From the NCBI RefSeq assembly GCF_002854065.1, contig NZ_CP024147.1: a stretch of DNA of 64,000 nucleotides; one strand, given 5' to 3'. The translations under genes were made by a program, and so were the position numbers. Position 1 is the first letter of the stretch. Every line of letters begins with the position of its first letter. The notes beneath the pieces are model-generated. The model was not told the DNA's origin, did not search any database, and was given only the letters and a program-made list of their open reading frames with translations. The stretch is from Escherichia coli. Lineage in GTDB: Bacteria; Pseudomonadota; Gammaproteobacteria; Enterobacterales; Enterobacteriaceae. Shown piece after piece: positions 10,669-16,468 of this stretch.

Positions 10669-11013
10669 GTTTCATCTCCTTATTCCATATTCTCATTCTC
10701 CATAAACTTGCTATAAAAACATGATTAAAAAGTGATGATTACTATTTATAAAATAATGATTTTGTTATGAGCGAATAGCTATCAGCCACTTACACTAGTA
10801 CGTCATCTTGTCTATATACAGATTTGTAACTGTTGATATGTTTTACTTAAACACACCTCGTATTTCTTATAACACTTGTTTGGTAACTATTTTCAATACA
10901 AATCATATTTGTTAGTTCTTCATTAACACACTGCGAGTGTTTTGTTACTCCCCGCATATATTTTATTCTCTTGTTCGATTCTATTTTTCTTAATCGATCA
11001 TATAATTTTCTTG

Positions 11014-11193
11014 TTAGTCGGATTTACGAATCATGAGACTTATAATGGAAGGAATGAGACTAAGCGGCCAGGTTAAACCTGTAATTATTGCAGCAAACAA
11101 CCGATATGTTACTTTTTCTTCCGAGAAGATAAATATTAAAGTCGATGTCACAACCAGACCTATCAGGTAAGCTAACAGTAATTTATTGATCAC
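11014..11193 (-). CDS. Hypothetical small membrane protein (59 aa, two predicted helices)
   Basis: GTG start 5 nt after GGGAGG; translation MINKLLLAYLIGLVVTSTLIFIFSEEKVTYRLFAAIITGLTWPLSLIPSIISLMIRKSD; absent from the ORF track (below 60 aa). Confidence 0.45.
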   Translation of the reverse strand: MINKLLLAYLIGLVVTSTLIFIFSEEKVTYRLFAAIITGLTWPLSLIPSIISLMIRKSD

Positions 11194-11259
11194 TTTTACC
11201 TCCCCTTTCGATTTCTCTTTGAGCGGTCCTTTTAATCCAGGACCGCCTCATTATGAAAA

Positions 11260-12870
11260 CTATTTAATTCCCTCATCATTGATAAGGTTGGACATCTCTT
11301 TCAACATGAGAGTCATTGAAGCTTTCGACCAATTTAGCGGAATGATAGGGCTTGGCGCTTCATGCAAAGTTCCCGACTTGTGGATATAGTTATAGCTTTC
11401 GGGAAGTGCCATTTCTGGTACGCTCCTGCCATTTGCACCAATCATATTCTCGCCTGTTATTTGGGCCAATGATCTATTCATAAATTGTACTGAGTCATTC
11501 AAATACTCTTCTTTTCTTGATTCTTTATAAACAATTGCTGCTGATTTTGCATACCATGAGTCAAAAAACCATTCTGCTTCTGTTGATGGAATGAAGCTCT
11601 TTTCTCTTTTTGCATGCGAATTTTGATCGGTATCGGTTTTAATATCATTGAACCAAAAATTTGCCGACTGATAATTATCCTTCTCGTATCTTTTTATACC
11701 ATACGGACCTGCTAGTTTTTTAACTATTTTTAGAACTTGCTCTTTTCTTCTGGTGTTTATCTTTGAAAGATTTGCAGGATAAATAACATTAAGTAAAGCC
11801 GCATCGGCTTCTCTGTAATGTTTATCTTTTTCCAGATAACCTGGGGATTCTCCCCCTAAATCAAGCTGTAACGTTATTCTTTCATAACCTTTATCTATGA
11901 GGTGGTTCAACCTCGTTGTTGAAAGAGGTTCATCCAGTTCATTGGCTTTAGCTTCGCGTAGTAAATCAGAGACAAAAACAGATTCTTTCTTCGAGAGTAA
12001 GTTCGACAAACGTTCCAGTCCAGAGGTCACCAGTGCAACGGAAGATGTGTTTAATCGGGCATCTTCCTCCCACGCTCCGGAATCTTCCATAACATAGAAA
12101 TTGGCTTTATCCAGATAAGCAATCAGCAACGCAACCGATTTTAATCGGTCACCTTTTTGCCAATCTTCAGCGTTAATAGTACCAGTATTGATTGCTTGTA
12201 TAAGGAGATCAAGATAAAGACCTAACGCATCATTTTGTTTATGGTTCCACAGCTGCGGCTTGCCTTCTTCCTGCACATCTGCCATCACGGGGGAGTTGCT
12301 GTCAAATCGGATATGCACAGCATTCATTTGCCCGGGAATACCATCCAGTCGTTTTGGGTTGCTAATGATGTCCTGCATCCGCTTAATCTGGTCGGGCGTA
12401 GACATATAATCCCACAGGGTGAGCAGAACCTTTTTTGCGGCTACACTATTTCCCTGGTCTGATACTAATGCCATATAGCCCCATAAACTATCCCTCAGCC
12501 AGACAGCATCATAGTGGGTTTCTGCCGCTGTTTTGTCATCTTCGAAAGTAGAAGCAAGAATAAACGTTACCCAGGGTTTCTCCGTCAACGTTAACTTTCG
12601 TGTGTTTTCTGTTAATGTTAGCAATCCTTGAATTTCGTCTTTGGTATAGTGGCTCTTTATTTCATTTTGTAATTTGGCTGAGTGAATCAGAAGACGATAA
12701 TTAGGATACTTATCTGGATTTAACGATAAATAACTTTTATCTGTTGCTGCCCCCGTGGAATTAAGAATGTTAAATACAGATTCACTCGTCACTTCTGCCC
12801 CTGTCGCCTGGCATGTGCCGCACGAAAATATACCAGCGAGCAGAAGAGTTAATGCAGATTTCCCTTTCAT
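11260..12870 (-). CDS. Secreted or lipoprotein glycoside hydrolase family 15-like protein
   Basis: 536-aa ORF from MKGKSALTLLLAGIFSCGTCQA (signal peptide with Cys); GH15-type motifs (AVWLRDS; GAWEEDARLNTSSVALV). The track's N-terminal extension to 12939 reads into IS2 and is rejected. Confidence 0.6.
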   Translation of the reverse strand: MKGKSALTLLLAGIFSCGTCQATGAEVTSESVFNILNSTGAATDKSYLSLNPDKYPNYRLLIHSAKLQNEIKSHYTKDEIQGLLTLTENTRKLTLTEKPWVTFILASTFEDDKTAAETHYDAVWLRDSLWGYMALVSDQGNSVAAKKVLLTLWDYMSTPDQIKRMQDIISNPKRLDGIPGQMNAVHIRFDSNSPVMADVQEEGKPQLWNHKQNDALGLYLDLLIQAINTGTINAEDWQKGDRLKSVALLIAYLDKANFYVMEDSGAWEEDARLNTSSVALVTSGLERLSNLLSKKESVFVSDLLREAKANELDEPLSTTRLNHLIDKGYERITLQLDLGGESPGYLEKDKHYREADAALLNVIYPANLSKINTRRKEQVLKIVKKLAGPYGIKRYEKDNYQSANFWFNDIKTDTDQNSHAKREKSFIPSTEAEWFFDSWYAKSAAIVYKESRKEEYLNDSVQFMNRSLAQITGENMIGANGRSVPEMALPESYNYIHKSGTLHEAPSPIIPLNWSKASMTLMLKEMSNLINDEGIK

Positions 12871-13002
12871 AAAATATTCCATCAATCGTTTGTTAAAAGC
12901 GTAGATAACCATAGACTGGCCCCCTGAATCTCCAGACAACCAATATCACTTAAATAAGTGATAGTCTTAATACTAGTTTTTAGACTAGTCATTGGAGAAC
13001 AG

Positions 13003-13368
13003 ATGATTGATGTCTTAGGGCCGGAGAAACGCAGACGGCGTACCACACAGGAAAAGATCGCAATTGTTCAGCAGAGCTTTGAACCGGGGATGACGGTCTC
13101 CCTCGTTGCCCGGCAACATGGTGTAGCAGCCAGCCAGTTATTTCTCTGGCGTAAGCAATACCAGGAAGGAAGTCTTACTGCTGTCGCCGCCGGAGAACAG
13201 GTTGTTCCTGCCTCTGAACTTGCTGCCGCCATGAAGCAGATTAAAGAACTCCAGCGCCTGCTCGGCAAGAAAACGATGGAAAATGAACTCCTCAAAGAAG
13301 CCGTTGAATATGGACGGGCAAAAAAGTGGATAGCGCACGCGCCCTTATTGCCCGGGGATGGGGAGTAA
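13003..13368 (+). CDS. insC: IS2 protein InsC (OrfA)
   Basis: 121-aa [21 protein letters not shown]..., RBS GGAG upstream; the track ORF starts 15 codons earlier inside the terminal repeat. Confidence 0.95.
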
Positions 13369-14231
13369 GCTTAGTCAGCCGTTGTCTCCGGGTGTCGCGT
13401 GCGCAGTTGCACGTCATTCTCAGACGAACCGATGACTGGATGGATGGCCGCCGCAGTCGTCACACTGATGATACGGATGTGCTTCTCCGTATACACCATG
13501 TTATCGGAGAGCTGCCCACGTATGGTTATCGTCGGGTATGGGCGCTGCTTCGCAGACAGGCAGAACTTGATGGTATGCCTGCGATCAATGCCAAACGTGT
13601 TTACCGGATCATGCGCCAGAATGCGCTGTTGCTTGAGCGAAAACCTGCTGTACCGCCATCGAAACGGGCACATACAGGCAGAGTGGCCGTGAAAGAAAGC
13701 AATCAGCGATGGTGCTCTGACGGGTTCGAGTTCTGCTGTGATAACGGAGAGAGACTGCGTGTCACGTTCGCGCTGGACTGCTGTGATCGTGAGGCACTGC
13801 ACTGGGCGGTCACTACCGGCGGCTTCAACAGTGAAACAGTACAGGACGTCATGCTGGGAGCGGTGGAACGCCGCTTCGGCAACGATCTTCCGTCGTCTCC
13901 AGTGGAGTGGCTGACGGATAATGGTTCATGCTACCGGGCTAATGAAACACGCCAGTTCGCCCGGATGTTGGGACTTGAACCGAAGAACACGGCGGTGCGG
14001 AGTCCGGAGAGTAACGGAATAGCAGAGAGCTTCGTGAAAACGATAAAGCGTGACTACATCAGTATCATGCCCAAACCAGACGGGTTAACGGCAGCAAAGA
14101 ACCTTGCAGAGGCGTTCGAGCATTATAACGAATGGCATCCGCATAGTGCGCTGGGTTATCGCTCGCCACGGGAATATCTGCGGCAGCGGGCTTGTAATGG
14201 GTTAAGTGATAACAGATGTCTGGAAATATAG
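13326..14231 (+). CDS. insD: IS2 transposase InsD (OrfB), IS3 family
   Basis: 301-aa ORF overlapping insC in the -1 frame; DDE-type integrase core. Confidence 0.95.
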
Positions 14232-14439
14232 GGGCAAATCCAAACCACTTATTTAACAACTTGAAAATAAGGTATTTTACCTGGGTTGTTATAAAAGGAT
14301 TGCATTGCGTAAACGCTTTTTATTTACAAAATAATGGGGAAGTGTTACTGCGATTGCGAAAAGTCTGAACCGATTGAATTAAGATAATATAGAAAATCAG
14401 ATACAACAAAAATGGCAGGTTGATGAGGTGAAGATAAAT

Positions 14440-14513
14440 TGGAGCGGGCGAAGGGAATCGAACCCTCGTATAGAGCTTGGGAAGCTCTCGTTCTACCATT
14501 GAACTACGCCCGC
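14440..14513 (-). tRNA. glyU: tRNA-Gly (anticodon CCC)
   Basis: Minus-strand 74-nt sequence GCGGGCGTAGTTCAATGGTAGAACGAGAGCTTCCCAAGCTCTATACGAGGGTTCGATTCCCTTCGCCCGCTCCA; cloverleaf with CCC anticodon and encoded CCA. Confidence 0.97.
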
Positions 14514-14591
14514 TTCGAGATGCGTAAGGCATTATAAACCTTACGCTCTCCTTAGCAAGTGCCGCGCTGCTGACTGCTGATTAATTCGCCA

Positions 14592-15347
14592 TCAGCATTT
14601 TGGCTTGCTGCCCTGCGGCGGCAAGTAACGTAGCGGATCAATTGCCGTTGCACGGTAACGAATCTGGAAATGCAGGCGAACAGATGCCGCATCCGTGCTC
14701 CCCATGGTGGCGATTTTTTGCCCAGCCTTCACGCTTTGCCCATTATTTACCAGCATCGTGTCATTATGGGCGTAAGCCGTAATGTAATCTTCACTGTGTT
14801 TAATCATGATGAGATTACCGTAGCCACGCAGCTGGTTGCCCACATACACCACCTTTCCTGCACCCGCGGCGTAAATAGGTGTACCCCGTGGAGCAGAGAT
14901 ATCAATCCCTTTATTGCCGCCATCTGCTGTCGAATACGGCATGATAACTTTCCCTGTCGTTGGCCATAACCAACAACGTTGCCCTACTGGCGGCCAGGAA
15001 GATTTCGGTACCGCTGATGACGGTGTAACCGATGCGGTTTTGGTCGTTGATTTGGCGGTTGATTTACGTGTACTACTGCTACTTTTCGCCCCACCCAGTT
15101 TTAGTTTCTGACCAACTTCAATGGTGTAAGGGGGGGAAATGCCGTTCAGTCGCGCCAGCTCTTTTACGCTGGTTCCCGTGGTGCGCGAAATACGATATAG
15201 CGTATCCCCCCGTTTCACGGTGTAAACGGAGCCGGAATACGTTCCTGTATCGGATGATTTGCTACCCGAACAGCCCGCCAAAAGCAGTCCAACCGATAAC
15301 AACATCACGATACCCAGAGATTTTTTATTCAGGCGTCCCGCACTCAA
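14592..15347 (-). CDS. ygeR: LysM/M23-peptidase-family lipoprotein
   Basis: Lipoprotein signal (LLLAGCSG), LysM region, C-terminal M23 fold; TTG start at 15347 preceded by GAGGAAAG (the track extends to another TTG at 15371). Confidence 0.85.
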   Translation of the reverse strand: MSAGRLNKKSLGIVMLLSVGLLLAGCSGSKSSDTGTYSGSVYTVKRGDTLYRISRTTGTSVKELARLNGISPPYTIEVGQKLKLGGAKSSSSTRKSTAKSTTKTASVTPSSAVPKSSWPPVGQRCWLWPTTGKVIMPYSTADGGNKGIDISAPRGTPIYAAGAGKVVYVGNQLRGYGNLIMIKHSEDYITAYAHNDTMLVNNGQSVKAGQKIATMGSTDAASVRLHFQIRYRATAIDPLRYLPPQGSKPKC

Positions 15348-15489
15348 AATCTTTCCTCGCTTAAAAAACAAGACGCCATATCATAGCAGCCAGCCTCTTG
15401 ATACCCAATCTCTTGCTTCTGGAAAAACGCGGTAGGTGATGCTGCCAACTTACTGATTTAGTGTATGATGGTGTTTTTGAGGTGCTCCA

Positions 15490-15765
15490 GTGGCTTCTGT
15501 TTCTATCAGCTGTCCCTCCTGTTCAGCTACTGACGGGGTGGTGCGTAACGGCAAAAGCACTGCCGGACATCAGCGCTATCTCTGCTCTCACTGCCGTAAA
15601 ACATGGCAACTGCAGTTCACTTACACCGCTTCTCAACCCGGTACGCACCAGAAAATCATTGATATGGCCATGAATGGCGTTGGATGCCGGGCAACCGCCC
15701 GCATTATGGGCGTTGGCCTCAACACGATTTTCCGCCATTTAAAAAACTCAGGCCGCAGTCGGTAA
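15490..15765 (+). CDS. insA: IS1 protein InsA
   Basis: Protein identical to the other two InsA copies; GTG start. Confidence 0.95.
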
Positions 15766-16187
15766 CCTCGCGCATACAGCCGGGCAGTGACGTCATCGTC
15801 TGCGCGGAAATGGACGAACAGTGGGGATACGTCGGGGCTAAATCGCGCCAGCGCTGGCTGTTTTACGCGTATGACAGGCTCCGGAAGACGGTTGTTGCGC
15901 ACGTATTCGGTGAACGCACTATGGCGACGCTGGGGCGTCTTATGAGCCTGCTGTCACCCTTTGACGTGGTGATATGGATGACGGATGGCTGGCCGCTGTA
16001 TGAATCCCGCCTGAAGGGAAAGCTGCACGTAATCAGCAAGCGATATACGCAGCGAATTGAGCGGCATAACCTGAATCTGAGGCAGCACCTGGCACGGCTG
16101 GGACGGAAGTCGCTGTCGTTCTCAAAATCGGTGGAGCTGCATGACAAAGTCATCGGGCATTATCTGAACATAAAACACTATCAATAA
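15684..16187 (+). CDS. insB: IS1 transposase InsB
   Basis: Protein identical to the other two InsB copies. Confidence 0.95.
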
Positions 16188-16468
16188 GTTGGAGTCATTA
16201 CCAACGCGGTAATAGAGAAAGAGGTTAATTTCATTTGGCAAAGGGAAGTATCATCAGCAAAATTTTCGCTGTAGAGGTATCGAATTTCCTGACTTTTTTA
16301 CCCTATTTCCCATCCTGATGCGTAATAATCCCAATTTATCACATTGATTTTATCGCCACTCATATTGATACGTATCACTGTCCCTATTCAGAGTCCTGTT
16401 TCGTATCATATCTGTGTTTTTTTAACGTCATCACACTTCCTTCCTCCCCTAACGCTTATCGTCGTTTC

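Follow-up and report, generated by a model that had tools for sequence, protein, structure and literature searches.

Between the glycoside hydrolase gene pkgA and the tRNA gene glyU, the stretch of Escherichia coli DNA analysed here (64,000 nucleotides; hereafter the window) carries a complete copy of the insertion sequence IS2. Comparison with related genomes makes it very probable that this copy results from one clean, recent IS2 transposition into the glyU-pkgA spacer, independent of IS2H, the copy that K-12 carries near the same tRNA gene. The insertion is specific to the lineage of the window; IS2 is an already-known element, and the site, although new, is unremarkable. We describe below the element and its target duplication, the genomes in which the site is still empty, the decaying island in which the insertion lies, and the accumulation of IS2-family copies at this end of the island. 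Coordinates are collected in Table 1.

The element and its target duplication

The interval 12907-14247 corresponds exactly to IS2 plus the two copies of AACCA. The left end of the element (TAGACTGG... / TAGACTGGCCCCC...) lies at 12912 and the right end (...GCAAATCCA / ...GGGGCAAATCCA) at 14242, and each of these ends occurs once within the 64-kb window. The original prediction, made from the letters of the window, held that identical AACCA pentamers flank a 1331-bp IS2, and this was confirmed at 12907-12911 and 14243-14247, with an identity of exactly 5 bp. On both sides the likeness of the flanks stops after those 5 bp (upstream AAGCGTAGAT versus GGCAAATCCA; downstream TAGACTGGCC versus CTTATTTAAC), and a 5-bp match arising by chance at the local composition (31% G+C) has a probability of ∼0.002.

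Table 1. Features of the window, followed by the IS2-family target sites mapped around glyU in other genomes
Feature	Position	Strand	Basis
Two IS1 copies, same orientation, 23 bp apart, between yqeG and truncated sctC	7421-8188 and 8212-8979		
GH15-family gene pkgA, intact, 536 aa, last ETT2 island gene	11260..12870	-	ORF; annotated 1611-nt 'glycoside hydrolase family 15 protein'
Left target-site duplication copy, AACCA	12907..12911	.	Single AACCA in K-12 and in 12 further empty-site loci
IS2, complete, 1331 bp	12912..14242	+	Direct reading of window; comparison with K-12 IS2H
Left inverted repeat (IRL), 42 bp, starts 5'-TA	12912..12953	+	Equals IRL in oligonucleotide of PMC3219604; inverted repeat I1, 33 nt, 79% complementary
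orfA (InsC / IS2 TnpA repressor), 121 aa	13003..13368	+	NF006928 match
Slippery site A AAA AAG (A6G), programmed -1 frameshift	13320..13326	+	X_XXY_YYZ register of orfA
orfB frame (InsD / IS2 TnpB)	13326..14231	+	NF006918 match
Right inverted repeat (IRR), 41 bp, ends CA-3'	14202..14242	+	41-bp IRR per PMC3219604
Right target-site duplication copy, AACCA	14243..14247	.	Direct reading of window
glyU, tRNA-Gly(CCC)	14440..14513	-	ARAGORN; K-12 glyU annotation
Third IS1, between actS and xdhA, perfect 9-bp duplication AACGCGGTA	15435-16202		
Sites inside pkgA (n=7): TATAG, GTTTC, CTCCG, TCTTC, CAAAC (inverted), CTCCC, CTGTT			
Sites upstream of ghoT (n=2): CACTT, CAGCC			
Sites in other ETT2 genes (n=5): GTATA (sctC), GATCA (beside orgA/sctJ remnants), GTTGG (sctT), two ATCAT (sctR)			
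Sites in actS-xdhA spacer (n=2): GTTCC, ATCAC			

As judged from its sequence, the copy in the window is a canonical, complete IS2 (IS3 family, IS2 group) with no sign of a defect. Four other E. coli strains (L018, L021, L029 and L033) have copies that agree with it at 1331/1331 bp, and it shares 1330 of 1331 bases with K-12 IS2H, the sole difference falling at IS2 position 606 (window 13517). Copies identical to that of the window are annotated as 'IS3-like element IS2 family transposase, programmed frameshift' (WP_088895425.1). Both reading frames match the corresponding protein families over their full length: orfA scored 276.4 bits against NF006928 'IS2 repressor TnpA' (cut-off 229) and orfB scored 727.6 bits against NF006918 'IS2 transposase TnpB' (cut-off 597; positions 1-301). 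A -1 shift at the A6G motif, which has been described for IS2 (PMC3219604), joins them into an OrfAB transposase of 409 aa (13003-14231) that is free of stops. IRR is imperfect, and its reverse complement aligns with IRL. In length, inverted repeats, orfA/orfB organization, A6G -1 frameshift and 5-bp target duplication the copy agrees with the K-12 IS2 copies annotated insC/insD; the element itself is thus no different from known IS2, and its chromosomal position alone differs.

IS2 is known to move by a copy-out-paste-in pathway that proceeds via a figure-of-eight and a minicircle carrying the Pjunc promoter (PMC3219604, PMC3299598). Pjunc is formed from the TAGACT start of IRL and the end of IRR, and the window's copy has both. 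By analogy with the family, a donor IS2 elsewhere in the genome would have given rise to a double-stranded minicircle by copying-out, the ends joined in this minicircle would then have been cleaved so that both 3'-OH ends could attack the target 5 bp apart, and repair of the staggered cut at the target would have produced the two copies of AACCA.

Empty sites and competing readings

For comparison with other genomes we reconstructed the empty site by removing IS2 and one AACCA, joining window 10712-12911 to 14248-15400 (3353 bp). This sequence aligned to an NCBI assembly contig of E. coli (L008) in one alignment at 100.000% identity, with 0 mismatches and 0 gaps, and a further contig (L010) matched equally well across the 3182 bp that it covers. 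The original prediction had proposed to look in relatives for an empty AACCA site, and such a site was indeed found: the exact 40-nt sequence GTTAAAAGCGTAGATAACCA/CTTATTTAACAACTTGAAAA occurs in 13/13 loci checked, these being K-12 MG1655 and 12 other E. coli. In a wider search, 3351 of 5426 complete genomes held at least 80% of a 1200-bp version of the reconstructed empty site in one place, while the filled site had no colinear match among the 5426 complete RefSeq E. coli genomes. Since the flanks are contiguous and AACCA is single in relatives, the arrangement in the window points to one simple, recent transposition. The further claim that IS2 arrived by transposition rather than recombination is in agreement with the perfect 5-bp duplication and with the fact that in-silico excision restores a sequence identical to that of existing genomes.

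Copies of IS2 that have taken part in rearrangements do exist at this locus, and it is worth considering whether the window's copy could likewise reflect recombination between two IS2 copies, or a deletion adjacent to IS2, instead of a clean insertion. K-12 IS2H adjoins a deletion and, like a copy in strain BY63, lacks a duplication, and in E. coli CUWW06 an identical IS2 without a duplication lies between ghoT and 294 bp of an integrase island. Against such an origin in the window stand its perfect 5-bp duplication, flanks that follow each other without interruption in empty-site genomes, with 100% identity over 3353 bp, and the lack of a second IS2 end within the 64 kb. The perfect empty site refutes the rearrangement reading, and we regard it as extremely unlikely.

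Among RefSeq genomes the closest relative found was CUWW06 (NZ_CP182139.1, L033), which matches the window at 99.97-100% identity in the DNA that both have and carries IS2 at ∼8 places. One of these copies (L033 6001-7625) is near glyU, in the same orientation as the window's copy and identical to it at 1331/1331 positions. Its surroundings differ: a deletion running up to its left end has removed the DNA corresponding to window 11191-12911, the whole of pkgA included, and leaves ghoT on that side, whereas directly beyond its right end lie 294 bp that remain of an integrase island integrated at glyU and that are 100% identical to the glyU-proximal end of the island in L009/L012. Unlike the window's IS2 it has no duplication (TTGAT versus CCATA). 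The target site has been lost in CUWW06, so the empty state cannot be seen there. The rearranged copy might be a descendant of the window's insertion or might stem from a separate event; the data are compatible with both.

We also weighed the view that the window simply inherited by descent the ancestral insertion represented in K-12 by IS2H. The two are the same element (b2860/b2861 in K-12) in the same glyU-proximal neighbourhood of the ETT2 island: both are canonical IS2, they differ at 1/1331 bases, and both lie within ∼1.3 kb of glyU. In K-12 MG1655, however, IS2H (2996361-2997691) is on the minus strand, as is glyU (2998984-2999057), and lies between the pseudogenes ygeO and ygeP, which makes it inverted relative to the window's IS2 and places it 1292 nt from glyU versus 197 nt in the window. 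The nearest IS2H flank maps 1177 bp from the AACCA target of the window. The flanks of IS2H (TTTAT versus AACTT) show no duplication, and its ygeO-side flank fails to map to the reference locus, which is consistent with an adjacent deletion. IS2H thus borders on a deletion that took away part of ETT2, and it interrupts the GH15 gene, whereas the window has an intact GH15 gene and a clean insertion. Above all, K-12 retains an intact, empty AACCA site, so that shared descent with IS2H is refuted, and we attach practically no probability to it. The original prediction had stated that the position and orientation of the IS2 near glyU in K-12 are different, and this proved accurate: K-12 was looked at for the same IS2 at the same site and in the same orientation, and its IS2H is ∼1177 bp away, inverted and without a duplication.

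An error in the source assembly, in which a repeat was collapsed or misplaced, would be conceivable for an element that is multicopy (∼8 places in CUWW06), the more so as the right junction has no independent support; the sequence ...GCAAATCCA/AACCACTTATT that spans it had 0 hits in a scan of JGI metagenome contigs. In exact-protein look-ups, neither of the two ORFs that cross the junctions (50 aa and 559 aa) was on record. The left junction, in contrast, is crossed by a contig from an independent short-read run (L014, run ERR3970133), which matches window 8953-12940 with 1 mismatch in 3988 bp and reaches 29 nt into the left end of IS2 at exactly the window's site; independent sequence support appears to cover this junction only. 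Moreover, relatives have the target in single copy, and its matching duplication over 5 bp is not what a misplaced repeat would be expected to yield. We consider an assembly error very unlikely, and favour the clean transposition.

The glyU end of ETT2 and probable consequences of the insertion

ETT2 adjoins glyU and has a G+C content of 36.9% (PMC3977695). The IS2 was predicted to sit between island cargo and glyU, and it does lie between pkgA, the last ETT2 gene, and the tRNA gene, with its left end 41 nt from the pkgA ATG and its right end 197 nt from the 3' end of glyU; actS/ygeR is on the far side of glyU. The spacer that holds it is AT-rich (31% G+C). The gene pkgA corresponds to ECs3736/3737 of O157 Sakai and to b2863/b2862, its K-12 counterparts ygeP/ygeQ being fragments of the full-length gene. 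The exact GH15 protein of the window is recorded in many E. coli assemblies. We noted, directly beside the right AACCA, an AT-rich inverted repeat with 13-nt arms (CTTATTTAACAAC / GTTGTTATAAAAG) separated by 24 nt (window 14248-14297).

Widespread mutational attrition of ETT2 has been described (Ren et al. 2004, as cited in PMC3977695 and PMC7058095), and the window shows what, on that description, is the same process: a deletion beside a pair of IS1 copies has removed most of ETT2, sctC is truncated, and IS2 lies at the glyU end. The island is nearly gone, the order after yqeG being two IS1, truncated sctC, eivF and ghoT/ortT; the EivF protein is identical to AUJ97281.1 / WP_101969505.1 (E. 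coli). The three IS1 copies of the window, and the lack of the filled site among RefSeq E. coli, had raised the idea of a Shigella origin, which was rejected on account of this E. coli EivF record and of the 99.97-100% identity to E. coli CUWW06. In contrast to this general attrition, the window's IS2 breaks no coding sequence, being located in the 5' non-coding region of pkgA. The first of the paired IS1 copies (7421-8188) has a 9-bp duplication, GCATAACTT. The second (8212-8979) abuts sctC at codon 315, and most of ETT2, from yqeH to sctC, is absent there. At the corresponding site CUWW06 has one IS1 and a larger deletion that extends to window 10596.

Together with its duplication, IS2 has moved everything upstream of position -41 of pkgA away by 1336 bp; because of this displacement pkgA has probably been cut off from any native promoter upstream of -41. 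A scan of the glyU-pkgA spacer predicted no promoter-like or terminator-like sites, and neither inspection by eye nor the scan revealed a convincing outward hybrid promoter at either end of IS2. The scan gave a single strong promoter-like site, located upstream of glyU (14558-14531, TTGCTA-16-TATAAT), and glyU itself appears to be untouched by the insertion. Taken alone, the insertion is of little weight: it is a textbook IS2 event, whose main use is to mark the lineage and to provide a clean, datable stage of ETT2 decay.

Several assemblies that encode the exact GH15 protein of the window (L007, L009, L011, L012 and L013) carry differing integrase-bearing islands at the 3' end of glyU, between glyU and pkgA. 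A 23-bp overlap between the flanks of the islands in L009, L012 and L013 suggests an att repeat. These islands indicate that glyU, besides adjoining ETT2, continues to be used actively for integration. On the other side of glyU, the IS1 at 15435-16202 is absent from the near-identical relative CUWW06, and is therefore a recent, lineage-specific insertion too.

IS2-family copies around glyU

The original prediction saw in the window's IS2 a sign of independent IS activity at a hotspot, and a survey of other genomes upheld this as far as accumulation is concerned. Our IS2 search joins pieces on one strand only, and an inverted-IS2 query was run separately. The first survey had returned copies near glyU exclusively in the orientation of the window's IS2, but this orientation bias was an artefact of the one-strand search, as the inverted query added 29 more genomes as well as K-12 derivatives. 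With wider flanks, IS2-family copies at the glyU locus were found in 39 genomes in the window's orientation and in 29 in the opposite one, the K-12 derivatives being additional. At a control locus 25 kb away (xdhD-xanQ), the same query design returned 2 genomes, compared with 39 at glyU in the same orientation, a comparison that uses one control locus and counts genomes, not insertion events. An initial control in xdhA was confounded, since at 2-4 kb from glyU it recaptured the same IS2 copies, and it was replaced by xdhD-xanQ. On one control and counting genomes, the accumulation of IS2 at the glyU end of ETT2 is real.

We fetched 20 representative loci (CUWW06 among them) and mapped 19 of them together with K-12. 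Besides that of the window, this gave 16 distinct IS2-family sites around glyU, and at every one of them the element has a 5-bp duplication of its own (Table 1). The mapped copies in K-12 and BY63 lack a duplication, as does that of CUWW06. The 17 duplicated pentamers share no target consensus. The locus shows the full series from the empty site, through a clean insertion as in the window, to IS2-adjacent deletions as in K-12 and CUWW06. Of all that surrounds the insertion, only this regional build-up near glyU is of some mild interest, and the glyU region could be a convenient natural setting in which to study how IS2 chooses its targets and how IS elements erode horizontally acquired islands.

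The accumulation might reflect tolerance, in that an insertion is neutral in an island already silenced and decaying, and is retained, with no target preference on the part of IS2. We give this an even chance of being the explanation. The attrition for which ETT2 is known (PMC7058095, PMC3977695) fits well with it, as does the accumulation at this locus, in various strains, of IS1, IS421, IS1203, IS903B and IS100; many of the ETT2 genes that were hit are, in addition, already pseudogenes. Two cases of closely placed insertions argue the other way. The pentamer TCTTC in pkgA is occupied, in the same orientation, by canonical IS2 in L005/L029 and by a variant in L027. The flanks at this shared site are near-identical (0/400 and 3/400 mismatches), and the variant has 58 differences spread over positions 10-1305. 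In sctR, insertions of these two IS types in L022 and L028 lie 3 bp apart in an ATC repeat. The reuse of TCTTC by two IS2 types and the pair 3 bp apart suggest some real fine-scale target preference, or else replacement of a whole element. Tolerance and target preference can both be true. A stronger proposal is that the glyU-proximal 2-4 kb of ETT2, comprising pkgA and its surroundings, form a true IS2-family hotspot with fine-scale preference, and that IS2 is a principal driver of ETT2 erosion from the glyU end, acting via clean insertions and then adjacent deletions such as those in K-12 and CUWW06; we put this forward tentatively and think it somewhat more likely to be wrong than right.

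An IS2-like element of 1331 bp, ∼95.6-95.9% identical to IS2, is common at the locus (L003, L026, L027, L028 and L031) and is annotated only as 'IS3 family transposase' (e.g. WP_089541817.1). Four of its copies differ from one another by just 1-3 bases, and that of L003 differs from those four by 22-25. The copy in L023 is a further variant, 97.8% identical to IS2.
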